A DNA stretch of 60,948 nt. Source: an uncultured archaeon (GTDB lineage: Archaea > Asgardarchaeota > Thorarchaeia > Thorarchaeales > Thorarchaeaceae). Each line of letters begins with the position of its first letter. Position 1 is the first letter of the stretch. Below are positions 19,615 to 32,340 of the stretch, piece by piece. The DNA is taken from NCBI GenBank assembly GCA_964610875.1, contig CAZSWP010000023.1:1-60948 (forward strand), read 5' to 3'. The position numbers and the translations under genes are program-made. A model generated the notes under the pieces. It saw only the letters and a program-made list of their open reading frames with translations, did no database searches and was not told where the DNA came from.

Positions 19615-19879
19615 GCTTTATTCATTCTAAGAGATACTAGGCTCTAGAATATGAAAATTATGAGTAAATTCGCTCATAGCTTTCGTCAGACTCTTGACCT
19701 CTCTGTTGGCGAATCTGCTGCAACTGTTGTGCCATTTCCTTCATCCTGCTTCGGATATCATCTGCTTGTTCTTCAAGTTCTGTTACATCCACATCAATTG
19801 GATATAACTTATCTAAAGCTTTGAGTATCATAGCAGCACCCTCTGGATCAGGCATTGAGGCTGTTGCTGGAGTTAGAAG

Positions 19880-20059
19880 GGTTGCTAGCAGCTCCAAAAA
19901 TCCTAGACATGTTTCAGGAGGGGTTTATATACTCAGACAAGGTACAAGAATACTGAGGTCAACCTGACACGTACCATGACCTCACAGAGCCATTCCCAGT
20001 ACCGTTTTTGGGAAGACAATGCTCTGGTGTCCAGAATTGTCTAGAGTACAATGAACGGT
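19880..20059 (+). mobile_element. Non-autonomous ~180-bp element, copy 1 (IS607-like GG core)
   Basis: GGT at both ends (19880-82, 20057-59); interrupts the PAC2 gene; homologous to 25890-26080 and 32237-32270. Confidence 0.8.
19954..20059 (+). ncRNA. Predicted structured RNA of element copy 1
   Basis: TTTATATA at 19924-31; stems TGAGGTCA/TGACCTCA, CAGAGC/GCTCTG, TTCCCAG/TTGGGAA; loop ACCGTT complementary to terminal AACGGT. Confidence 0.6.
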
Positions 20060-20532
20060 AAATCCAACCATCTCACGAATCAAGCTCTCACTTAAAACCG
20101 AACCAGATGTACCACTGATCAAGCCTTTCTTCAAGACCTCAAAGGTCTCATTCTCCTGCAACTCCTTCATTTTCTCTTCTTCTGTTGCGTATAGCACTTT
20201 ACGTTCTGAAGGAATTCTCCTGCTACAAGAAACAAACACTAGGGAATTTAAAGACTTTCAAAATCCAATGGATTCCTTTCGCAAGCGCAAAGGCATCATT
20301 GTTTCATCACTATATCAACTGCATCTCGGTTTTTCAAACACCCAGGTTTATAATTATCCTCAGATTCTCAGTCGGTTCAGTAATCCGAGATTATAAGTAC
20401 TTAACAGTCTCATTTTTTCTGCTTGAAGAATACTCTGATGATTAACTATGATTTTCATTGTTCAGAAGAAAGTATACAAAAAATAGCAAAACTTATTCTT
20501 GAATGGTAGAATTGGAAATCTAGGTAAGCATC

Positions 20533-22320
20533 GTGGCGAAATGGGGTATCTATTCTCTTATGATAATATTATCAATATTATTGATTCAAGTTTTCCAACC
20601 CTTGCAAATACCATCACATCTGAAGGACATCTCTCAACAGCAGAATTTCAATAACACAGATAATGTAAGATCCAGCAATCAATTGATTCCAGAAAGTATG
20701 CAGATGGTGCTTTCCGAAGCATCAAACATATCGGTGTCATATGTAGACCATCATTATGGAGATACCGACGGGATAATAGACCCACAAGAATATTCCCTAA
20801 ATTTCAGTGATTCAGACACACAAGTGAGATTGTGTTTTGAACATAATGATTCACATCTATTTGTGGGACTAGAAGGTCCGACCACAGGGTGGATTGGAAT
20901 TGCATGGAAACAACATACTGAGAATTTTACAATTGATGGACTTAATCGAAGTGATATAATACGGGGATATGCTCCTGGAACAACTCATACAGATATCATG
21001 AGAACAAAAGGTTCAGACATAATAGAGATTAGCTATATCGTGAGATTCAGGAATGGTAGTGAGTTCGGAGCAGGGAAGTTTCCTACAATTGAAAATAATG
21101 AACCGATTGATGATTTGAATGTCCTTACAAAGTATAAGGAACAGCTTTATGGAATGCGAATAGGTGAAACAAGAAATTTCATGATTGATGCAGAAGATGC
21201 ATATTCTATGTCAGATCATCCATTTTATGGTGAAGATCTAGAATACACAATCACATTGGAAGCAATAAACAGAGAGGGAATCATCTATAATGAGAGTCCT
21301 TCTGAGCTTAGTGATGTCGAATTCAGTGACGATTATGGTAATGACACATTGAATTTCAAACAAGATGGTGATATGACGAGAATAGTTTCTGTGAATGCCA
21401 GTGATGATGGTTCTAAGACGCAAATTGAATTCATAATAGAAATGCTAAGCCTTGATGATGAAGACATATCAATCCTAAGAGATACTTCTAAAGGTGTGCC
21501 CTTTATTGTTCTAATGTCAGATTCCGAGGATTTAGAAGCTCAACCAACATATCACACTGATTGGAATAATTTTCATCCACTCGTTTTTCAGAGTAATGAA
21601 CAACCTATAACTACAATCCTACACCCAGAAACTGATGAATGGGATGGAATTGTTCAGCTGAACATTTCTACATATGACAATTCGTTTGTGAGGTCTGTGG
21701 CGTGCTCCTTCGATCATACTCTAAATTATGATGAATGGATTCAACTAAGCTACGATAGTTTTACAGATATTTGGACAACTATGATTGATACAACTCAAAT
21801 GGATCTTAATTGCCATCAAATATACATAGATGCTTGGGATCCATCTGGTGTAAATGGAAGAATATCTCCAGTAATTTATGTCGTTGATTATACTGCACCA
21901 TTCATTAATAATCCACCAGATGTTTCATTCTCAGAAATCGATACCAATAAAGAAATAGAATGGAATCCATCTGACCATAGACCTGTATCCTATATAATCA
22001 GCAAAAATGAAAGTACATACGAGCAAGGAACTTGGGATGGGTCCAGTATCTCTATTATCCTCGATGATATTAGTATTGGAACCTATGATTTCACACTTAC
22101 AGTCTTTGATGAAGCAGGCAATAATAACTCTGATTCAGTTATTGTCACCATATATCAATTTGTCATTGAAACAACAGATACTAATACAACGACTGGTTCA
22201 ACAAAAGAATTTGACCCTTTGGTTATCTCCTACATTGTAACTGCGGTTTCATTTGGCGTAATTGTGCTTGTAGTGGGGTTGTTGGTAAAAGGCAGAAAAG
22301 ATACCAACTACTCTTCTTGA
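20533..22320 (+). CDS. Surface protein: DOMON-like domain with inserted FKBP-like domain, Ig-like domains, TM anchor
   Basis: LFVGLEGPTTGWIGIAW (DOMON-like); IEISYIVR...GMRIGETRNFMIDAEDAY...GEDLEYTITL (FKBP-like); DEAGN motif; C-terminal TM. Confidence 0.7.
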   Translation: MAKWGIYSLMIILSILLIQVFQPLQIPSHLKDISQQQNFNNTDNVRSSNQLIPESMQMVLSEASNISVSYVDHHYGDTDGIIDPQEYSLNFSDSDTQVRLCFEHNDSHLFVGLEGPTTGWIGIAWKQHTENFTIDGLNRSDIIRGYAPGTTHTDIMRTKGSDIIEISYIVRFRNGSEFGAGKFPTIENNEPIDDLNVLTKYKEQLYGMRIGETRNFMIDAEDAYSMSDHPFYGEDLEYTITLEAINREGIIYNESPSELSDVEFSDDYGNDTLNFKQDGDMTRIVSVNASDDGSKTQIEFIIEMLSLDDEDISILRDTSKGVPFIVLMSDSEDLEAQPTYHTDWNNFHPLVFQSNEQPITTILHPETDEWDGIVQLNISTYDNSFVRSVACSFDHTLNYDEWIQLSYDSFTDIWTTMIDTTQMDLNCHQIYIDAWDPSGVNGRISPVIYVVDYTAPFINNPPDVSFSEIDTNKEIEWNPSDHRPVSYIISKNESTYEQGTWDGSSISIILDDISIGTYDFTLTVFDEAGNNNSDSVIVTIYQFVIETTDTNTTTGSTKEFDPLVISYIVTAVSFGVIVLVVGLLVKGRKDTNYSS

Positions 22321-22417
22321 AGCAAAAGAAACAGAGTTTGAAACACCTACGAAGGGAATATAGCGTCCCCTAATTGGAAACACACTAGAGGATGCTAAAT
22401 TCTGCTTGGATATGATA

Positions 22418-23419
22418 CTATCTCATTTTCTCTTCATAGTAATAGTTTGGCTCATAAGTTCTTGGCCATTCTGGTTTATTATCCAATATCTCCTCTATCT
22501 CCTCGATTGTGGATGAGCTCAAATTTACATTCGATGCACCTGTGTTCTCCACAACCTGTTCAGCATTTGTTGCACCAATGAGAACCGCCGAGATTTCTGG
22601 TCTTCTAAGAATCCAAGCCAACGCTAACTGAGTCATTGTAGCATCTAGTGATTTTGCTATCTCAGTCAGTTTCTTCAACTTTTCACGCCATTCGTCAGTG
22701 AGATATTTTAAGAATCCTTCATCTCTGCTGCCACGACTACCTTCGGGAATTCCATCATTGTATTTGCCTGTGAGAATTCCTTGATAGAGTGGACTCCATG
22801 TAGTAAAGCCCATTCCCAAACTCTTTGCAACAGCCATAATTTCTACCTCAATATGTCGGAACAACATATTGTACATTGGTTGTTCGACAATGGGTCTCTG
22901 AAGACCATATTCTTTCGCAATTGCGTGAGCTCGTTCAAGTTGAGCAGCCGTCCAGACGGATGTGCCCCAATATCGAACTCTACCCGAATGAATCAAATCA
23001 TCCATTGTTTCAACAGTTTCTCTCAATGGTGTTGATGGATCAAATCTGTGCAAGTAGTAAATGTCAATGTGGTCCGTTCCTAGTCTCTCAAGTGTTCCTT
23101 CAATAGCATTCATTACATTCTTTCTACTATTACCCCAATCAGTGATTGCATCACTAGTTGGCCAGAACACTTTACTCGATAAAACGATGTTCTTTCGGTC
23201 AATCTGTTCTTCTTGTAACCATTCACCTATCACTTGTTCAGCTTTTCCGCCTGCATAAATCTCAGCCGAATCTATGAAATTGACTCCCTGTTCTAACGCA
23301 GTATTCATGCATTCTCTAGCAATTCTGTCATCAACAGTGCTGCCATAGGTCAACCAGGACCCAAGTGATAAATCACTAATCTTTAAGCCACTTTTTCCGA
23401 CCCGTCTATATTTCATCAT
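22418..23419 (-). CDS. Aldo/keto reductase (Kv-beta/Tas-like)
   Basis: GKSGLKISDLSLGSW, DSAEIY, SSKV, YYLHRFD, WSPL..GILTGKY. Confidence 0.95.
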   Translation of the reverse strand: MMKYRRVGKSGLKISDLSLGSWLTYGSTVDDRIARECMNTALEQGVNFIDSAEIYAGGKAEQVIGEWLQEEQIDRKNIVLSSKVFWPTSDAITDWGNSRKNVMNAIEGTLERLGTDHIDIYYLHRFDPSTPLRETVETMDDLIHSGRVRYWGTSVWTAAQLERAHAIAKEYGLQRPIVEQPMYNMLFRHIEVEIMAVAKSLGMGFTTWSPLYQGILTGKYNDGIPEGSRGSRDEGFLKYLTDEWREKLKKLTEIAKSLDATMTQLALAWILRRPEISAVLIGATNAEQVVENTGASNVNLSSSTIEEIEEILDNKPEWPRTYEPNYYYEEKMR

Positions 23420-23707
23420 ATATCTCCCTGTTACGGTATAAAATTAACTATATTAAATATTCGAAATGACCATAAAATGAATGAATAGTAAAAGAAATAC
23501 AACAAAATGCTTTTGATGGCTACGAAATCAGGACGGAGTCAAGAGAGGAGATAGCAGGGCGTGAAGAAGTATGGTGGAGAAACAGTCACAGGAATTGAAA
23601 AGGACAAAGATGAATCTTAAGTTAGTCCGGCCTGAGATTTCTCCCACTTTTTCAGCTTCAGAATCCCTTAATTACGTATACTTCTCATAACTTACTAGTG
23701 CACTTCA

Positions 23708-24592
23708 TTGACTGAAACAATGGACAAAAAAAACTCTGAATCTACAAAGACATTTAAAGTGGGCAAGACCAAAGTGAGTCCAAATCTGAAGGCTTCGATT
23801 ATAAGAGCTTTGGATAAGATTGGAGGAATAAGTGAATTCATTCAACCGGGCGATGACATCATTCTCAAGCCAAATCTAAACACTGCAGACCCATATCCTG
23901 CTTCAAGTGATCCAGAGTTCATTCGTGCATTGTGTGAGATAATACTTGACGAAGGGGTCAAACGATTACGAATCATGGAGAGTTCCATGTTTGCTTTGGA
24001 CTCAAATAAGATTGCAGAAGATGTAGGACTCGATGAAGTAGCAAGAAACCTTGACATTGACCTTGTCATTTTTGATAATTATGAATGGGTCAAGCAAGAC
24101 ATTCCCAAAGGCAAGTTCTTCAAGAGAGCACAGTTTGCTAAACCTCTGCTTGATGATTCTAAGCTCGTTATAGTGCCTTGTCTCAAAACACACAAACATG
24201 CGGGTCTGACGGGAGCTATGAAACTATTTGTTGGTGCAGTGCGAGGAAGAAGCAGGCTCTTTATGCATATGAGGAATCTTGAGGAGAAGGTCGTTGATCT
24301 GGCATCATTTTTCCAACCTGCATTGATTGTTATGGATGCAAGAAAGATCTTCGTCACAGGTGGACCAGCTCACGGACAACTTGAAGAACCAAATGTCATT
24401 CTCACGGGAACTGATATGGTATCTATAGATGTCGAGGGAATTAGGATAATTCAATCATACGGTGCTGAGAACGACCTAAAGGGAAACCCATGGAAAACAC
24501 GACAGATTGCACACGCAGTCGAGCTTGGGCTTGGGGCATCTTCAGATGATGACATCCTTCTCATCGAAGACCAAATCTCATCAATAGAATGA
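23708..24592 (+). CDS. DUF362 domain protein
   Basis: IILKPNL, PCLKTH, LTGAMK, GGP...G, DMVSID. Confidence 0.88.
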   Translation: MTETMDKKNSESTKTFKVGKTKVSPNLKASIIRALDKIGGISEFIQPGDDIILKPNLNTADPYPASSDPEFIRALCEIILDEGVKRLRIMESSMFALDSNKIAEDVGLDEVARNLDIDLVIFDNYEWVKQDIPKGKFFKRAQFAKPLLDDSKLVIVPCLKTHKHAGLTGAMKLFVGAVRGRSRLFMHMRNLEEKVVDLASFFQPALIVMDARKIFVTGGPAHGQLEEPNVILTGTDMVSIDVEGIRIIQSYGAENDLKGNPWKTRQIAHAVELGLGASSDDDILLIEDQISSIE

Positions 24593-25212
24593 TAAGAGAC
24601 CTTACTTTGCGTTCAATCATGGATTCTGATAGACTGCAAAGACAAATAGAGTTCATTGCAGAGATTGACAAAGCAAAGAGTGTCATTCGTCAGACTTCTC
24701 TAATTGATGGTTCCAGACAAGAGAATGACGCTGAACATTCATGGCATATTGCAGTTATGGCAATGTTGCTTTCAGAATACTCTAATGAACCGGTGGACAC
24801 CTTTAAGGTCGTCAAAATGCTTCTCATACACGATTTAGTGGAGATTGATGCGGGTGATACGTTTCTCTATGATGGTTCGAGTCGTGATGACAAATTTGCA
24901 AAAGAAACTGAAGCTGCAGAGAGAATCTTTAGTGTATTGCCTAAGAATCAAGCAGATGAGATGTTAGAGCTCTGGAATGAATTCGAAGCAGGTCGTACTT
25001 CCGAAGCTAGATTTGCAAAAGCATTGGACTTGATGCAGCCTGTACTTCAGGGCTACTTCAATAAGGGTTGGTCATGGCAACATCATGGATTATCTATGTC
25101 CTTAGTCATGCAAATGAAAGAGCCAATTGAAGAGGGTTCTGAGAGATTATGGGAGTTCACACAGAACCTTCTAAGAGATGCTCTGGAGAAGGGATTCTTC
25201 CCCAAAGAATAG
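24589..25212 (+). CDS. HD-domain hydrolase (YfbR/HDDC2-like)
   Basis: ENDAEHSWH, LIHDLVEIDAGD, EARFAKALD. Confidence 0.92.
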   Translation: MIRDLTLRSIMDSDRLQRQIEFIAEIDKAKSVIRQTSLIDGSRQENDAEHSWHIAVMAMLLSEYSNEPVDTFKVVKMLLIHDLVEIDAGDTFLYDGSSRDDKFAKETEAAERIFSVLPKNQADEMLELWNEFEAGRTSEARFAKALDLMQPVLQGYFNKGWSWQHHGLSMSLVMQMKEPIEEGSERLWEFTQNLLRDALEKGFFPKE

Positions 25213-25287
25213 ACAACGGTGAATATTCGCTTACTCAACTACGTTCTCTACAGCTTCCGGTTCATTTGGATTTTCATGGGATAGCAG

Positions 25288-25749
25288 TTACTTTATCTCA
25301 TCCTCCTCGACCTTGGCTTCTATCTCAGGATCGACAATTATCCGTTCTTGTTTGAGACCATGTTGTAATATAACCACACCAACCAACGATATAATCCCAA
25401 TTATGGTTAGGACAGGCGGGAATCCAAAGATAGGGATGAGCCAGCCAAATATGGATATTTGGGGTATTGCTAACAGCAAAAGTATGGTGGGAGATAGTGA
25501 GTATACGTTATTTCGAATCTTATTCGGAATGGCATCAATTATCAATCTCTGAGTTAGAATTTCTGCAAACGCACCAAAGAATGTTGTACTTGCAAAGAGT
25601 ACAAACATCAAGATGATTGGGAGAATATGAGCCTGTGGAATTTGTATCAGCTCGATGGTCGTGAACGGAATCAATATTGAGATCATGTTCCCGGCATTTG
25701 GAACAGGTGGCAGTAAGAACATCAAGATAGCGAATACAATATAATTCAT
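25288..25749 (-). pseudogene. C-terminal fragment of an MFS-type transporter
   Basis: About four TM helices with QRLIIDAIPNKIRNNVYSL; the upstream part of a 12-TM protein is absent. Confidence 0.55.
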
Positions 25750-25889
25750 GAAGGAACTGGTAGAAGAAAATTCTAGGAAACGAAATCAAAGAAAATAAAT
25801 AACATTTCAATATGATTCATAAATTGAGCTCAATGGACAAACTTCCTTCATAAAAGGAAAATGAGGTTCATCAATATTGCTAAAGATGA

Positions 25890-25998
25890 ACCGTTCATTG
25901 TAAGTTGGACAAATCTGGACACCAAAGCTTTGTCCTCCCAGACAACGGTACTGGGACTGGCTTTGCGAGGGTAAGATCGTGTGTCAAGACACCCTCAC
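25890..25998 (-). ncRNA. Predicted structured RNA of element copy 2
   Basis: TTATATA at 26025-26019; stems GTGAGGGT/ACCCTCGC, CAAAGC/GCTTTG, TCCCAG/CTGGGA; loop TACCGTT; 3' end AACGGT. Confidence 0.6.
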
Positions 25999-26080
25999 TA
26001 AAATATCCTTACCGGTCCTATATAAGCACCTACACAACAATGTCAAGGTTTGTCCTGATTATTAGTATCTGTTCGCGACC
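25890..26080 (-). mobile_element. Non-autonomous ~190-bp element, copy 2
   Basis: GGT core at both ends on the minus strand; collinear with copy 1; inserted at the base of the hairpin GGTTCATC/GATGAACC that follows the 26092 gene. Confidence 0.8.
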
Positions 26081-26091
26081 CTGTTTTTCAT

Positions 26092-28650
26092 TCATTTTTG
26101 TTTATTTCTGAACATGATTACTATGACAACAATGACAATACCTGCAATTACTGCAGCCAAGATGTATATCATAGTGAAATCCGTTGGTGGAAGTTCAGTT
26201 TCGGTAGTGGTTGTATCAGTGGTTGTATCAGTGGTTGTAACTTCATTACTGACAGTAACAACGTGAAGTACCCAGTTCTCGTTTCCAGCATTATCCAGAA
26301 CTTCAACATGGATATCATGTTCACCATTCTCATAATCCGTTGTATTCCAGTCATAAGTGAATGGACCATCTGTTAGATTTGCCACAAGAGTGGTATCTAC
26401 ATATATCAGCACTCTCTCAATACCACTTCCTTCGTCGGAAGCTGTAACACTAATTGTTTCAGTGCCAGAAACAGTACTCTGATTCTCAGGTTGACTTATA
26501 GTGACTGTAGGCAGAATGGAATCTGAAACGGTATACGTGAAGTAGTTTGTTCCATCTTTGAGTTCAGATAGCTTTCCGTAGGTATCGTTTGCTGATACAT
26601 AGTACAGAATCGACTGACCATAGTCCTGACTGGGGATAGTAGCAATGAACGTTCCATTACCTAGATCAGTCATTGTCACATTCGTGAAAGCAGGACCATC
26701 AACTTGGTAGTGCAGTAAAACAGTATCCAAACTAGAATCAACCACGTCACAGGAGATTGTAACCTCTTGATCATAGTTTGGAAGTGATGGATTTCTTTGC
26801 AAGTTTGTTATTGTAGGTGCTGGATCCTCATAGAGATAGAAGTCATCGAATATCACCTCAATTCTATCATCACAATCAGCACTCAATTCAATGCCATAAA
26901 AGGCATCATTAAGAGCGACACCAAAATAGTCAAAATAATCCACACCAATATTGCGTACTGCAGTGTGCCAGACACCAGTTTCAGATGGTAGATCATAGTA
27001 TCCTGAACTACCCTCTCCTTCATCACGCGATGAACCATTAGCCAGTACATAGACGAGTGCATCTTCATCTTCAAAGTAGATTGATATCTCGACATATTCG
27101 TCCGTTAAATTGGTGAAATCATCAATATACCAAGAGAATGTCAAATAGAGCTCACTATCTTCAGTAATTGGCATGTATGCAAGCTCCTGTTCTGAATAGA
27201 AATAGTTTGAACCTTCAATAGTCAAGTTGGCTGCCTTTTCACCAGTGAGTGCGAAGTCAGTGACATTGATTTCATTTTGATAGCCAGAATCTACAAGTAA
27301 ACCATGGGCATTGGTTCCAACGGCACCTTCATCCTCGAAACCCATTGCACTCAATGCTGAGGCATGCAGATCCATATCATCAACTAACAATGTGATATTA
27401 GCTTGATACTCATCTGATTCTATTTTGAATTCAACAGACTGAACGATGACTTCACTCGTATCATTCCTAGCAGTTATATCATCATAGATACTTCTATTGA
27501 AGAGGTTCCAAGTTCCAGTTGTATTGAATGCTTCTGGAAAGATGATATGATAGCCTGAATAGTTATGCTTGAAAGTATCCCCATATGCCAAGGGGTAGTA
27601 GATACTGAACTCCTCAGTACCATCTTCGGTATGGTTCTTACAATTCACTAGTACATATGCTAAAGTATCCTTTGAATAAGCAGTCCATTGGTCAATTTGC
27701 CAATAGAATGTGAAACTATCCCTATTATTCTCAGTCAGCCGTATCTCAGGACTAGTGGAGAACTCTGCATAGCTCCGATTGTCGAGAGAATAACAAGACA
27801 TGTTCATGCTATAATCCCCACTCACTCTTGTTGTACTTTGAGAAACAATACCTGGGTCGTTATTCGATGTCAAATAAGCTCTAAAGTCACCAAATGAATC
27901 ATAGGTGTCACTCTTGTATAGACTGTTGTTATATACCTCGATAGTGTCTACAAAGACTCTAGAAAATCCGACAGAATAACTACGCAAATAGAAGTCAAAT
28001 CCTTCGTACTCAGTCGGAACCACAGAGAAGCCATCAATGTAATCAGCAGTAATATTTCTGTCAAAATGATACCACTCACCATAATTCGTATCTATCCAGA
28101 AATATCTGTAGCTAGTACTATTTGTCGCAGTGATACTGGAACCAAAGTAGTATCTCAGATACTTTGTACCCGGATTACCTAATCTGAACTCTAGCATGAA
28201 ATAGTCACTGTCAACAGGATTAGTAATTGTTTCAATATAGTAGTAGAACGACATTGTCAGATTCACAGGATTTACCCAATGCGTGTATGAACCCTCACCA
28301 ATACGGTGATATGCAAAATCTCCAGTATATGACCTGATTTGCATACCAGCACTATGTGTCCCATTTGCCACAGGCCACGGAGAGGAGGCAAGCCAACCAT
28401 AACTAGACATGGATGTTGATGTTGAAAGGTAATCAGGGTCATATGGGTCATTCCATATTTCAAAATCCGGATTCTCAATATGATTAGATGTATAGTCAAC
28501 TCTGTCAAGATTTATTGCAGATTCAACATTTTGTTTCTCACCTAAATTAGTCAAGAATAGGTGTGAATTGGCTAAATCCGATTGCATTGCAACCAATGAA
28601 GGTGCGATTAGAAGTATGGTAAACAAACACGCGGCAATTCGTAGTTTCAA
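26092..28650 (-). CDS. Surface glycoprotein-like protein: repeated jelly-roll-like modules, Ig-like domains, Thr linker, TM
   Basis: Signal peptide; three modules beginning xxFE and ending W...RN; ASD..SGI..V...VD and DNAGN motifs; TTTDTTTD; TM plus basic tail. Confidence 0.8.
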   Translation of the reverse strand: MKLRIAACLFTILLIAPSLVAMQSDLANSHLFLTNLGEKQNVESAINLDRVDYTSNHIENPDFEIWNDPYDPDYLSTSTSMSSYGWLASSPWPVANGTHSAGMQIRSYTGDFAYHRIGEGSYTHWVNPVNLTMSFYYYIETITNPVDSDYFMLEFRLGNPGTKYLRYYFGSSITATNSTSYRYFWIDTNYGEWYHFDRNITADYIDGFSVVPTEYEGFDFYLRSYSVGFSRVFVDTIEVYNNSLYKSDTYDSFGDFRAYLTSNNDPGIVSQSTTRVSGDYSMNMSCYSLDNRSYAEFSTSPEIRLTENNRDSFTFYWQIDQWTAYSKDTLAYVLVNCKNHTEDGTEEFSIYYPLAYGDTFKHNYSGYHIIFPEAFNTTGTWNLFNRSIYDDITARNDTSEVIVQSVEFKIESDEYQANITLLVDDMDLHASALSAMGFEDEGAVGTNAHGLLVDSGYQNEINVTDFALTGEKAANLTIEGSNYFYSEQELAYMPITEDSELYLTFSWYIDDFTNLTDEYVEISIYFEDEDALVYVLANGSSRDEGEGSSGYYDLPSETGVWHTAVRNIGVDYFDYFGVALNDAFYGIELSADCDDRIEVIFDDFYLYEDPAPTITNLQRNPSLPNYDQEVTISCDVVDSSLDTVLLHYQVDGPAFTNVTMTDLGNGTFIATIPSQDYGQSILYYVSANDTYGKLSELKDGTNYFTYTVSDSILPTVTISQPENQSTVSGTETISVTASDEGSGIERVLIYVDTTLVANLTDGPFTYDWNTTDYENGEHDIHVEVLDNAGNENWVLHVVTVSNEVTTTDTTTDTTTTETELPPTDFTMIYILAAVIAGIVIVVIVIMFRNKQK

Positions 28651-28791
28651 TTATGTTAGCTCCTTGTGCATTTTATGCATTCTTACTCCACATATAAGAT
28701 ACACTGTGATTTTGAGATAAAATTGATTGATTTCTAAAATTATACTTTTGGATATGTAAGTTTGATATTATTTTTCAAAGATTCTTTTAAA

Positions 28792-29045
28792 TCATATCAG
28801 ATGAAGTCCATTCCTCTTCGACAGTGATTCTACTACTTTCACAAAACGATATGATACAATGACATAGAATATACCACATACCATAAGCACCAACCATTCC
28901 AAACCTATAGGAAGAATAGTCACCCAAGAATCACCAAAACTATAGTATCTAATCAAGTTATAGTCCCATGTATGAGGGAGAAGGTATGCGGCCATTTGGA
29001 AAGGTAGAGATAAGATATACACTGGAAAATAGGCACCACAGATGA
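28792..29045 (-). pseudogene. C-terminal fragment of an ABC-2 type permease
   Basis: CGAYFPVYILSLPFQMAAYLLPHTW..LIRY...KRNGL; no N-terminal part. Confidence 0.55.
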
Positions 29046-29172
29046 ATTAGAGTAGTGTGAAAGGGAGGTCATTTATCGTTGATATCTGATGCTAAAAACT
29101 TCTTAGAAGTCAATTAATGGTTGCACAAAAAAGTAAAATCATCGAAGCACAGATGTACACTCAGGGTTTATT

Positions 29173-29925
29173 GTGGAAATACTCTATCTAATGCCCGGAG
29201 CAGGGATGCCTGAAGACGAGATAGAACGGCGAACTGAGATTACCAATCGAATATCTCGAAACGACTTTAATATCACGGTAGAAGAAGTTGGAGAAGGACC
29301 TCTCTCAATCGAATCATCAATAGAGGAATTCATGTCCGTAGGACCAATGCTTCATCGATTACGAGAACTTAGAAATAATCATCATTATGATGCAATAATA
29401 ATCGGTTGTGCTGGAGACCCAGGTCTACGTCCTGCTAGAGAACTAATGGACATACCGATAATAGGACCTGCTGAGTCATCCTACTTCTTCGCTTGTATGG
29501 TTGCAGACAGATTCAGTATTTTGTTGACACCTCAAGCAGGAATGGAGTCAGATTCAACAATTAGAGCATATGTGAGAACACTTGGACTTGAATCGAGGTT
29601 GGCTGAAGTCAGCTTCATTAATTCATCTGTAACTGATATGTGGTCTGCGGACTATCACAGCATTTTGGTAATGGTTGAATCAAAACTAGATGAAGCACAA
29701 ACAATAGGTGCAGGTTGTATGGTATTGGGTTGTATGTCAATGGCATTCCATCTTATTGATGATATTGTACGAAAAGAGTTCATTCCAATTGTAAATCCAC
29801 TGAAGACTGCTATTAAGACAGCTGAGGCATTTGTTGATTCAAAGATGATCCAGAGTAGATTGACATATCCACCAGCAGATTTGCAGAAACTCGATAAAAC
29901 ACTATTCGGGGGAAAGGAGGGATAG
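29173..29925 (+). CDS. Asp/Glu/hydantoin racemase family protein
   Basis: GPLSIES, IIGCAGDPG, VLGCMSM, PIVNP. Confidence 0.9.
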   Translation: MEILYLMPGAGMPEDEIERRTEITNRISRNDFNITVEEVGEGPLSIESSIEEFMSVGPMLHRLRELRNNHHYDAIIIGCAGDPGLRPARELMDIPIIGPAESSYFFACMVADRFSILLTPQAGMESDSTIRAYVRTLGLESRLAEVSFINSSVTDMWSADYHSILVMVESKLDEAQTIGAGCMVLGCMSMAFHLIDDIVRKEFIPIVNPLKTAIKTAEAFVDSKMIQSRLTYPPADLQKLDKTLFGGKEG

Positions 29926-29928
29926 ACA

Positions 29929-31155
29929 ATGGGAAGAAAGAAGAGATATTCAGGATACAAGGCCTACGAATACCTGACTCCAGGAAAAGATTACAAGCAC
30001 TTCATTCTACGAGATGCGATAAAGAAGGACTGGTCGTATCTTGTACCACTCTCTAAAACCGAAGAGGAACGAGTGGAGGAGATATTTGAGAAGAATATCA
30101 TCATTGATCTCCACGAACATCCAACTCTGATGCCGGAGAATGTTGATGACTGCATAAAGCTCTGGAAGGAAGGAAGAGAGCATATGGCATATGAGGCACT
30201 CAGTACTTCTCCACTCGATTGTATCTTCGATAATATGCTAGACGGGAGTGCATTCATTACAAGCAAACATGGTTGGAAATGGAATGACGTCATTCATGAT
30301 ATTGGTCAACGACTCTGCGATATTTCTCACCAAGATTATGTCATTCAATGCAAGAATGTGAAGGATATCATAGATGCATTCGATAATGGAAAATTGGCGT
30401 GGGTACCTGTTCTTGAATCATCGACACCTATTGAGAATGAGGTTGATAGAATAGATATTCTCTATGGTCTGGGAATACGCTCAATGGGATTGACTTATAG
30501 TGAGTCGAACATGTTGGGATCGGGATTGAGTGAGATACAAGATGGAGGACTCTCTGATTTCGGTTATGATTGTATCGTTCGTATGAACAAGCTTGGAATG
30601 CTAATCGATGTGAGTCACACAAGTGACAAGACTGCATTGGATACAATTGAATCCAGTAAGAAACCAATCATTATCTCACATGCTGGAGCGAGGTCTCTAC
30701 TACCTATTAAGAGATTGTTTCCAGACGAAGTCTTACAGGCATTATCTGAGAGAAATGGTGTGATAGGTATCGAAGCAGCTCCGGGATATACAGCTACAAA
30801 GGACAATCCAACCCCTTCGATTGATACATATATGGCTCATCTTGAGTATTGCATTGACCTCATGGGCACTGACCACGTTGGATGTGGACCCGACACACTC
30901 TATGGAGATCATGTTGGATTCTATAGAATTGATGACCAGAGATACGAAGATGCAGGACTGGGACATTATTCAAGAACTGAACAAAAGGAAGATTTGAATG
31001 TGGATAGGTTACCAGATTATGTGGAAGGACTTGAAAACCCCACAGAGTCTCTGAATAACATAACCCGATGGCTTGTAAAACATGGTTACTCGGATGATGA
31101 GATAGTGAAAATCATCGGATCTAATGCTCTTCGTCTACTCAAAGAGGTATGGTAG
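29929..31155 (+). CDS. Membrane dipeptidase (peptidase M19)
   Basis: IDLHEH, GLTY, DGGLSDFG, IDVSH, ISH, DHVGCGPD, GSNALR. Confidence 0.92.
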   Translation: MGRKKRYSGYKAYEYLTPGKDYKHFILRDAIKKDWSYLVPLSKTEEERVEEIFEKNIIIDLHEHPTLMPENVDDCIKLWKEGREHMAYEALSTSPLDCIFDNMLDGSAFITSKHGWKWNDVIHDIGQRLCDISHQDYVIQCKNVKDIIDAFDNGKLAWVPVLESSTPIENEVDRIDILYGLGIRSMGLTYSESNMLGSGLSEIQDGGLSDFGYDCIVRMNKLGMLIDVSHTSDKTALDTIESSKKPIIISHAGARSLLPIKRLFPDEVLQALSERNGVIGIEAAPGYTATKDNPTPSIDTYMAHLEYCIDLMGTDHVGCGPDTLYGDHVGFYRIDDQRYEDAGLGHYSRTEQKEDLNVDRLPDYVEGLENPTESLNNITRWLVKHGYSDDEIVKIIGSNALRLLKEVW

Positions 31156-31212
31156 AAGATTCTACTAGAAAACGTTAGCCTTATGTCATGCATTTTCTAA
31201 ATAGGTGTCACA

Positions 31213-32235
31213 TTGAAAAGGATATTAATCATAGGAATTGCCCTGCTTCTGTTTATACAGACTCCAGTGCATACTCCACAGGATTCAACATCGGTAAAAA
31301 ACACACCAATGATGTTTCTTTCACAAGCAGCACTACTTCAAAGTGGAGTTCAAGTCAGTGGTAGTCTGGGATTTGAAGATGACTTTGATATGTATGTAAT
31401 CCAAGTAAATTCTCCTACTGTTTCCATGAACGCGGTCCTAACGTGTCCCGAGGAATCAGATTTTGACCTCTACGGTCGTTTTAATGAAACTCCTACTGAG
31501 AACATATATGATTGGCGAGGCTTTTCATCTACTGGAGAGAATGTGACTTATTGGATTCCTGAAGTAGGAATTTGGTACATCATGGTTCATTCTTGGTCGG
31601 GCTCAGGAAATTATACACTCACAGTCACAATTCAAGAACTTGATATTTCTCATGATTATCATCTTGAAGATGGTGTTCCAGTTAGCAATATTCTTCTCGA
31701 TGGGCAGGAATCAGGAATCTACAGGATGTTCATTCCAGAGAATGTCACATCGATTCGCATTGTACTGGATTGTGGTAGCAACGATTTTGATTTTTATGCA
31801 CGGTGGGAAAATATACCAACTCGGAGTAACTATGATTTTCGAGGATACTCCAGTACGGGAGAAGATCAAGAAATTGATGAGGTTTACAATGATTCGCTAT
31901 ACATCATGGTGTATGCATATTCTGGTTCAGGACAGTATACACTTACAATATTCTTCACCTATGCAAATTTTGGCACAAATGCATTCCTCAATTGGATTAT
32001 GGCACCTTTCGTCTTACCAGGAGTAGTCTTTCTGTTCGTTGGTACCGTCGTAATTGTTTTGTATATTCGGAGAGAAACATCAGAATATCAAGAATATTCA
32101 TCCTCAGATGACTCTGACCAATCCAGATATAGAAAAGAGCATACTATTCAGCTCTATTGCCCCGTTTGTAGAACGAAACTGAAGGATGGAGCAGAGAAAT
32201 GTCACGAGTGTGGTATTGATTTAACACACTACTAG
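31213..32235 (+). CDS. Two PPC (pre-peptidase C-terminal) domains, TM helix, cytoplasmic zinc ribbon
   Basis: Tandem DFDLYGR/DFDFYAR...YD.RG.SSTGE...YIMV...SGSG.YTLT repeats; TM; CPVC...CHEC. Confidence 0.85.
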   Translation: MKRILIIGIALLLFIQTPVHTPQDSTSVKNTPMMFLSQAALLQSGVQVSGSLGFEDDFDMYVIQVNSPTVSMNAVLTCPEESDFDLYGRFNETPTENIYDWRGFSSTGENVTYWIPEVGIWYIMVHSWSGSGNYTLTVTIQELDISHDYHLEDGVPVSNILLDGQESGIYRMFIPENVTSIRIVLDCGSNDFDFYARWENIPTRSNYDFRGYSSTGEDQEIDEVYNDSLYIMVYAYSGSGQYTLTIFFTYANFGTNAFLNWIMAPFVLPGVVFLFVGTVVIVLYIRRETSEYQEYSSSDDSDQSRYRKEHTIQLYCPVCRTKLKDGAEKCHECGIDLTHY

Positions 32236-32236
32236 A

Positions 32237-32340
32237 ACCGTTCATTGTAAGCTGGACAGATCTGGACACCGGTCAATAGAGCACATGAGGGTCATACTAG
32301 AAGAGATGATGAATACATCAAGTATATACGTGCTGTCAAA
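32237..32340 (-). mobile_element. Degenerate copy 3 of the element (right end intact)
   Basis: 32237-32270 matches copy 2 at 32 of 34 nt; residual ATGACCCTCA arm, TATATA and TTGACA further in; left end not recognisable. Confidence 0.65.

Follow-up and report, generated by a model that had tools for sequence, protein, structure and literature searches.

The stretch of DNA analyzed here, called the window in what follows, comprises 60,948 nucleotides of an uncultured archaeon of the Thorarchaeaceae (Asgardarchaeota; contig CAZSWP010000023.1 of GenBank assembly GCA_964610875.1). It raises the question of what is represented by three similar non-coding segments, which an earlier note, made from the sequence alone, had taken for non-autonomous mini-elements of the IS607 type mobilized in trans, with an IS110/IS1111-type origin as the main alternative. 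The analysis of the window and of the genome to which it belongs (G000; 124 contigs, 3.75 Mb, 95% complete) confirmed a dispersed family of gene-less elements of about 190 bp, which are very probably non-autonomous, internally deleted derivatives of an archaeal IS607-family transposon. Four parts of the transposon appear to have been kept in them: the left end, a TATA-like box, a guide-RNA (omegaRNA) scaffold of about 110 nt (in full-length elements, this scaffold and the 3′ end of tnpB overlap) and the right end.

The three segments with a common right end were all present, with coordinates slightly corrected to start at 19879 in the first, to end at 26081 in the second and to span 32237–32272 in the third. 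Copy 1 (19879–20059, plus strand) is a complete mini-element of 181 bp, measured from GGGT to GGT, and copy 2 (25890–26081, minus strand) is a complete, intergenic one of 192 bp, while the third is a remnant, a solo right end of 36 nt (32237–32272, minus strand). Recounted on the sequence, the identities of the 34-nt right end were those of the earlier note (32/34 between copy 2 and the third segment, 29/34 between copies 1 and 2), and both full copies start with (A)GGGT and end with AACGGT as it had stated. Searches of the whole genome with nhmmer and BLAST (best E = 1e-22) gave about 60 matches to the right end and about 55 to the left end, which pair at distances of 170–221 bp in 41 complete mini-elements; another 20 or so copies are partial or sit at contig ends. 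The repeat broke the assembly, and about 25 more ends are found at the termini of contigs for this reason. The covariance model R1, which represents the scaffold considered below, yielded 59 matches in the genome; in the window it found copy 1, copy 2 and the remnant, and no others.

The limits of the elements are invariant. On the left, all alignments start at the same base, with GGGT(T/C)G..., and on the right all of them stop at the same base, directly after ...TACAATGAACGGT. In 42 junction pairs, the four positions of the left boundary were G in 42, G in 40, G in 39 and T in 42 cases, and those of the right boundary were G, G and T in 40 cases each, so that the base after the right-end GG is T in 40 of the 42 copies, followed by variable flank. 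Since GGGT occurs at only 0.2% of the positions of the genome, the numbers of ends, pairs and junctions place the family far beyond chance. The earlier note would have given up its reading if no further copies existed or if the junctions varied at random, and what was found is 41 full copies with an invariant junction logo. Flanking sequences differ from copy to copy, with a slight enrichment in A before the left end and an enrichment in T after the right one. Five subfamilies of 2–7 copies with 97.9–100% identity were distinguished, plus 18 singletons, and the near-identical copies sit in unrelated flanks. Copy 1 belongs to a two-copy subfamily that lacks one of the two 10-nt motif repeats of the left end, and copy 2 to a seven-copy subfamily (97.9–100% identical). 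The near-identical subfamilies point to recent activity of the mini-elements.

The remnant deserves separate mention. Its 36 nt are 100% identical to the final 36 nt of two other copies, and nhmmer and BLAST detect these terminal nucleotides alone. The possibility that it is a decayed full copy was rejected, because the 131-nt alignment to R1 (44 bits) is carried by the terminal 36 nt. It starts exactly at an internal CCGGT, which resembles the terminal ACGGT and the GGGT target, with no decay seen. Instead of erosion, its origin could be an adjacent deletion, made by the recombinase at an internal pseudo-site; a second solo right end of this type was not found.

Concerning the sites of insertion, two copies that interrupt genes were set against eight sites without an element, of which seven are orthologues, from six genomes, and one is a paralogue. 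Copy 1 splits a gene of the PAC2 family encoded on the minus strand. The 3′ piece lies at 19658–19878 (Pfam PAC2, E = 5e-8, profile positions 173–215 of 215) and the 5′ piece at 20060–20239 (60 codons ending exactly at the element boundary). When the left flank, GGGT and the right flank are rejoined, the site aligns without gaps with the orthologues of two other genera, in which the four target positions read GAGT (G001) and AAGC (G008). The reading frame of the gene is continuous only if four nucleotides stay, so that the net insertion amounts to 177 bp. The second copy (C2:111376-111566) interrupts an NMO-type gene, and its rejoined site encodes ...PIIQGGMGPYKTES... (...QGGMGPYKTES...), which matches codon for codon five orthologues and one paralogue; two of these orthologues (G010 and G002) read exactly ATGGGTCC. 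The gap-free rejoined sites mean that a single GGGT is kept and that there is no target duplication. As the left junction reads G-GGT and the right junction C-GGT, the GGT common to both indicates a two-base crossover within it (GG or GT), the target being GGGT either way. Empty alleles with a single GG(T), which the earlier note had proposed to look for, thus do exist. The GG(T) core that it described holds at the junctions, and is refined here to a four-nucleotide GGGT target with the crossover somewhere in the shared GGT.

These comparisons bear also on whether the segments could be an immobile repeat of the host, such as a regulatory element of the repetitive extragenic palindromic (REP) kind or a family of small-RNA genes. 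An intergenic position, which many copies have, and a promoter-like box are what such a repeat would show. Nevertheless, copies split otherwise conserved genes whose orthologues and paralogue are precisely devoid of them, and near-identical copies are found in unrelated flanks, which makes an immobile repeat extremely improbable.

The left end of the elements contains two CYWGACA motifs 10 bp apart and the right end the same pair inverted, so that pairs with this spacing occur in both ends. In copy 1, the left end GGGTTGCTAGCAGC... (19879–19924, plus strand) matches the left-end profile and contains the presumed TnpA-binding motif CCTAGACA (19902–19909, plus strand), an inverted match to the right-end motif. 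The right end has the pair TGTCCAG / TGTCTAG (20028–20044, plus strand), lying 10 bp apart in the orientation opposite to that of the left-end motif. Terminal inverted repeats are absent from the mini-elements; left and right have inverted matches only in subterminal positions, namely CTAGACA/TGTCTAG in copy 1 and, in copy 2, a double motif of 15 nt. The absence of terminal repeats and the inverted motifs 10 bp apart in the right end had both been described in the earlier note and are borne out. The elements resemble classical miniature inverted-repeat transposable elements (MITEs) in being short, gene-less, multi-copy and formed by internal deletion of an autonomous insertion sequence. The two features that define MITEs, terminal inverted repeats and target-site duplications, were tested and are absent here, and this class was discarded.

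A resolvase search of the genome gave exactly two resolvase-type genes, both on contig C18 and so outside the window, which contains no resolvase-type transposase, in agreement with what the earlier note had said of it. The proteins encoded by both genes display HTH_17/MerR at residues 1–50 and Resolvase at 65–197 (Pfam), i.e., a MerR helix-turn-helix (HTH) followed by a resolvase catalytic domain, which is the architecture of the TnpA of IS607. The left-end profile constructed from the mini-elements matches directly upstream of both genes (gggtttgataacagc...cccagacaaacctagaca and gggttgccgacagc...caagataaacctagaca), and the left end of copy 1 is homologous to these sequences. A right-end match, with the boundary directly after ...tgtctagctttgtctaggttacaatcaacggt, occurs about 8.6 kb downstream of the first tnpA and ends 25 nt past the stop codon of a gene for a TnpB-like protein of 731 amino acids. 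The first full-length element (C18:16147-24729) therefore contains tnpA and the 731-aa tnpB between ends of the mini-element type. In the second one, which starts at C18:60599, the genes follow in the same order, and the contig ends within tnpB. Long elements with the same ends flanking a serine-recombinase tnpA and a tnpB, which the earlier note had suggested as a check, are accordingly present. Its proposal of IS607-type mini-elements is supported, and their movement would be due to TnpA acting in trans.

The 731-aa TnpB contains the motifs GADRG, FENL and HADVNAARN together with two CxxC pairs, which correspond to an intact RuvC D-E-D triad and a zinc ribbon; compared with solved structures, its C-terminus gives a weak match to LaTranC (E = 0.002). 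The NCBI names of its homologues are those of proteins of Candidatus Thorarchaeota. The partner TnpB is long in general (about 710–740 aa). Searches of 40 other genomes of the family of the host detected this long TnpB in 29 and TnpA in 17, tnpA being either adjacent to tnpB or 5.2–6.5 kb from it. This latter spacing recurs in at least eight loci.

Several further observations were made on these elements. Both full-length elements contain, antisense between tnpA and tnpB, an open reading frame (ORF) of about 1,800 codons without Pfam match, located at L031 2820-8336, minus strand (equivalent to C18:16819-22335 of the host genome), and at C18:61274-66610, minus strand. The two encoded sequences are 38.7% identical over their whole length. 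On account of this giant ORF, the Aloposons, giant-protein transposons of Heimdallarchaeum, were considered and set aside, as they integrate at tRNA genes and are different (PMC8813620). Isolated, diverged 3′ ends of tnpB with right ends of the ...ACAATCAACGGT type and no intact gene upstream occur at C4:79108-79168 and C18:47864-47957, and are remnants of full-length elements. At two loci of other genomes (G006 C1:113687-114316 and G010 C81:166301-166758), an N-terminal fragment of tnpA abuts a C-terminal fragment of tnpB, in what looks like an internal-deletion intermediate on the way from a full-length to a gene-less element. Seven further TnpB-like genes of the host genome, on contigs C78, C3 (two), C37, C25, C16 and C12 (frames of 379–625 aa), have no match to the right end of the family; they are probably parts of different elements that have guide RNAs of their own.

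The characters of the family can be compared at this point with those of known IS607 elements, which have a serine TnpA with an HTH at its N-terminus, a crossover at GG, (G)GG targets and subterminal repeats, and are devoid of terminal inverted repeats and of duplications of the target (PMC6188088). The relatives of the mini-elements encode, like IS607, IS1535, ISC1926, ISXfa1 and CboIStron, a serine recombinase with an N-terminal MerR-like HTH (PMC6188088). Likewise, the mini-elements have neither terminal inverted repeats nor target duplication, show GG at both junctions as well as in the target, where an additional G is preferred, and contain short subterminal repeats. In the right-end RNA (reRNA) of IS607 elements the base after the right-end GG is fixed and forms part of the scaffold, and a GGG target-adjacent motif (TAM) was described for ISXfa1 (PMC10711439). 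The fixed base, as well as the overlap of the tnpB guide RNA with the right end, are shared by the family studied here (PMC10711439, 10.1101/2023.11.20.567912). The features of IS607 membership were thus found together: MerR-HTH and resolvase in the relatives, subterminal motifs whose distances to the two ends are unequal, no duplication, GG at both junctions and the fixed base. On the other hand, unlike the IS607 family, the mini-elements are gene-less (170–221 bp), reach about 60 copies per genome and have a promoter-like box directly before the scaffold; their partner TnpB is unusually long (about 710–740 aa), and some full-length relatives contain the antisense ORF of about 1,800 aa.

The same evidence bears on two other families of transposons. 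The first is IS200/IS605, whose palindrome-associated transposable elements (PATEs) are gene-less, often keep the omegaRNA and depend on a supply of both TnpA and TnpB in trans (PMC10055086). The mini-elements could be PATEs moved single-stranded by a Y1 tyrosine transposase, GGGT being then simply the motif of the target that precedes the left end; it is in IS200/IS605 that TnpB and PATEs with an omegaRNA are best known (PMC10055086), and hairpins are present in the mini-element. However, the 95%-complete genome has no match to Y1_Tnp (PF01797), the left ends sit upstream of serine-recombinase genes, and the occurrence of GGT at both junctions with a fixed base after GG is a signature of IS607 and not of IS200/IS605 (PMC10711439). 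The IS200/IS605 origin was rejected on the basis of the missing Y1 transposase and the GGT repeated at both junctions, and must be considered very improbable. The second is the origin from, or mobilization by, an IS110/IS1111-family DEDD recombinase that the earlier note had kept as its alternative. An IS110-family transposase is indeed present in the genome, and IS110 elements also lack terminal inverted repeats. Yet the ends of the mini-elements (GGGTTGC... / ...ACAATGAACGGT) were not found flanking the IS110-family gene of this genome, which has its own, unrelated ends and is itself located inside mini-elements, at one fixed internal position and with at least two independent right junctions. 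As it is inserted in the mini-elements, these are its target and not its offspring. An IS110/IS1111 origin was rejected, and its probability is next to nil.

As an observation on the IS110 element itself, its insertion point in mini-elements of the 221-bp type lies between GGTGTCCAA and GTTTGTACAA of the right end. The sites concerned are C2:158416-159104 joined to the contig end of C15 (right junction C15:76681/76682), C61:13139-13363 and C8:31534-31704, with two independent right junctions that differ in their outer flanks; a diverged relative is located at a third mini-element. The left end of the IS110 element repeats GGTGTCCAAAA. The fixed position looks like a sequence-specific targeting of the mini-element, of the bridge-RNA type.

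The next point is what fills the space between the ends. The elements are more than a pair of ends, as they contain an RNA scaffold and a TATA-like box that had gone unnoticed in the earlier note. The right part of about 125 nt, i.e., about two thirds of the mini-element, appears to be the scaffold of a TnpB omegaRNA/reRNA behind the box. In copy 1, the scaffold (19955–20059, plus strand; 119.7 bits with R1, to be compared with 122.8 bits in copy 2) contains three stems supported by covariation: P1 (19955–19961 with 19977–19983), P2 (19985–19990 with 20021–20026) and P3 (19995–19999 with 20008–20012). In addition, hand inspection detected a possible pseudoknot, in which the loop sequence GACAC (19966–19970) can pair with GTGTC (20027–20031) just 3′ of P2. 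Three sequences of other genera display changes at both sides of this pairing (AACAC/GTGTT, GACAT/ATGTC and GACAG/CTGTC). A pseudoknot is a known feature of RNAs of the omegaRNA/reRNA type.

The covariation was evaluated in an alignment (A1) of 22 distinct copies of the host genome, the right end of C18 and seven copies from other genera. Compensatory changes include CG/UA in a 15:15 proportion in P3 and GC/AU in a 16:11 proportion in P2. For the 18 defined pairs, 88.5% of the cells are able to pair, versus 29–46% with slid partners, and changes on both sides occur in 49 cells, versus 6–14 with slid partners; none of 500 shuffles reached the observed covariation score. The 18 pairs include 42 G-U cells, which would be A-C on the opposite strand, and this bias indicates that the structure belongs to the strand running from the left end to the right end. 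Moreover, R1 overlaps the 3′ end of tnpB, on the strand of the gene, in all 11 long-TnpB loci fetched from other genomes and in the gene on C18, and its matches at TnpB loci extend some tens of nucleotides beyond the coding match. An omegaRNA/reRNA is characterized by its structure, by an overlap with the 3′ end of tnpB on the strand of the gene and by ending at the right boundary. Rfam, including RAGATH-18 and other known transposon RNAs, gave no match over the window at the gathering score, nor with copy 1 at E up to 10. Considering all this evidence, the identity of the mini-elements as an IS607 derivative with an omegaRNA region is well supported.

The TATA-like box is located in copy 1 at 19925–19932 (plus strand; TTATATAC), 135 nt from the right end, and is presumed to be an archaeal promoter of the RNA. 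Among 34 distinct copies, 31 have a box of consensus TTRTATAY at a distance of 135–136 nt to the right end, whereas the length of the part to the left of the box ranges between 46 and 86 nt. The genome encodes the TATA-binding protein (TBP) and is therefore archaeal. The box would act as the promoter of the scaffold RNA, and an archaeal start about 25 nt after it would coincide with the foot of P1. Upstream of tnpA, the full-length element has a region similar to the left end, the box and the ACGAAA that follows, and the box may accordingly be a tnpA promoter that was captured. The right flank of copy 1 (20060–20079, plus strand) would be the guide of a read-through omegaRNA, by analogy with the reRNAs of IS607 elements (PMC10711439).

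It is plausible, with chances near even, that this RNA is made and used in trans. The opposite view, which is the less likely one but retains an appreciable probability, is that the mini-elements are true IS607-type elements moved by TnpA in which the RNA part is a mere passenger left over from the 3′ end of the parental tnpB, unexpressed or unused, the box being just the old tnpA promoter. This view is favored by the covariation, which may be older than the derivation of each subfamily, by the unremarkable folds of single sequences, and by two other genomes (G010 and G012) which hold many lower-scoring copies while TnpB occurs there only as fragments. It is disfavored by the conservation of the complete scaffold, as all 41 full copies match R1 over all its 124 positions, and by the distance from the box to the right end, which is fixed while the left part is not. 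Excision of an IS607 element of Clostridium requires no more than 40 bp of the left end and 60 bp of the right end (10.1101/2023.11.20.567912). As a right end of about 60 bp is thus enough in that element, neutral decay should give shorter forms, instead of the whole scaffold that is kept.

Some observations weigh against the interpretation of the mini-elements as IS607 derivatives with a functional guide RNA. The sequence by itself fits a crossover at GT as well as at GG. The full-length elements resident on C18 are relatives of the mini-elements and not their direct parents, in view of the moderate identity of the ends (approximately 72–82% over 50 nt on the left and approximately 68–75% over 60 nt on the right) and of the score of the scaffold of the resident TnpB with R1 (60 bits, versus about 120 bits for the mini-elements). 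The pseudoknot consists of three compensatory changes checked by hand, and its loop is inconsistently aligned in A1 and in a second alignment (A2). The folds of single sequences are no better than those of shuffled ones (z from −1.9 to +0.6) and do not always recover the covarying stems. Finally, the covariation demonstrates the function of the RNA in the family and not in the mini-elements as such, since all of it could predate the derivation of each subfamily and have occurred in autonomous lineages.

As to the distribution of the family, R1 was run on 120 other sampled genomes of the phylum, and gave matches in 10 of 17 genomes of the family of the host and in none of 103 elsewhere, the numbers of matches per genome being lower bounds once about 29 is reached (at least about 29). 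The many lower-scoring copies of G010 and G012, where only fragments were found with the query TnpB, fit decay after loss of the partner.

From these data a mechanism may be proposed. TnpA, supplied in trans, would bind the subterminal motifs, pair the ends and recombine them at GG (or GT) inside the GGT common to both junctions. This would free a double-stranded circle with the junction ...AACGGTTGC..., which would enter new GGGT sites, so that transposition would proceed through a double-stranded circular intermediate made by TnpA. No abutted right and left ends, such as a tandem copy or an integrated circle would have, were found in the assembly of the host genome. The public runs found to contain the locus are three DNA runs of one microbial-mat study, with no RNA run among them, and no joint across any copy (empty allele or circle junction) was seen in their fragmentary contigs of about 4x coverage; neither negative counts for or against the circle. 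Transcription from the own promoter of the element would pass through the scaffold and on into the right flank, and its product would be a guide RNA. Together with TnpB in trans, this RNA would bring about a cut at the vacated site, which consists of the GGG(T) motif and the flank, and recombination would restore the element. In a Clostridium IS607 element, the target of the recombinase, TGGG, coincides with the TAM of TnpB (10.1101/2023.11.20.567912). Here, the occupied site would read CGGT plus flank and the vacated site GGGT plus flank, so a TAM of the GGG type would tell them apart and the occupied site would be spared. Expression of the omegaRNA, its binding by TnpB and guided cleavage next to a TAM are predicted for this family from its likeness to the systems cited. 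It is tentatively proposed, at somewhat under an even chance, that the mini-elements are mobile guide-RNA genes equipped with a promoter, each of the about 60 copies per genome expressing an omegaRNA with its own right flank as guide, and one or two TnpB genes serving all of them in trans.

The closest known analogue of the mini-elements are the PATEs of IS200/IS605, for instance those of Geobacillus stearothermophilus, which are also gene-less derivatives with transposon ends and omegaRNA. They differ in that PATEs are moved single-stranded by a Y1 transposase acting at subterminal hairpins, whereas the ends, the target and the linked transposase are here of the double-strand, serine-recombinase type. 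No description of an IS607 counterpart of omegaRNA-bearing PATEs was found in the open-access papers searched. So, IS607 itself and the IS200/IS605 PATEs were known, while an abundant, family-wide non-autonomous element of the IS607 type that seems to be for the most part a guide-RNA gene would be new.

IS607 elements and TnpB nucleases are prokaryotic kin of the eukaryotic Fanzors and ancestors of Cas12, and the uncoupling of guide RNA, nuclease and recombinase is a live question. The mini-elements split genes (PAC2, NMO) and break assemblies, with about 25 contig ends that stop inside them, so the annotation of these archaeal genomes should mask and report them. The family offers a natural data set, with dozens of copies per genome, subfamilies, precise empty sites and full-length elements across a family of Asgard archaea, in which to study the minimal needs of a serine-recombinase transposon, the use of omegaRNAs in trans and the compatibility between the TAM (GGG(T)) and the recombination core. 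If the proposed mechanism is true, the mini-elements parasitize a recombinase for their movement and a nuclease for their retention, and would be the double-strand counterpart, of the IS607 type and in Asgard archaea, of omegaRNA-bearing PATEs, a dispersed system with one nuclease and many guides.

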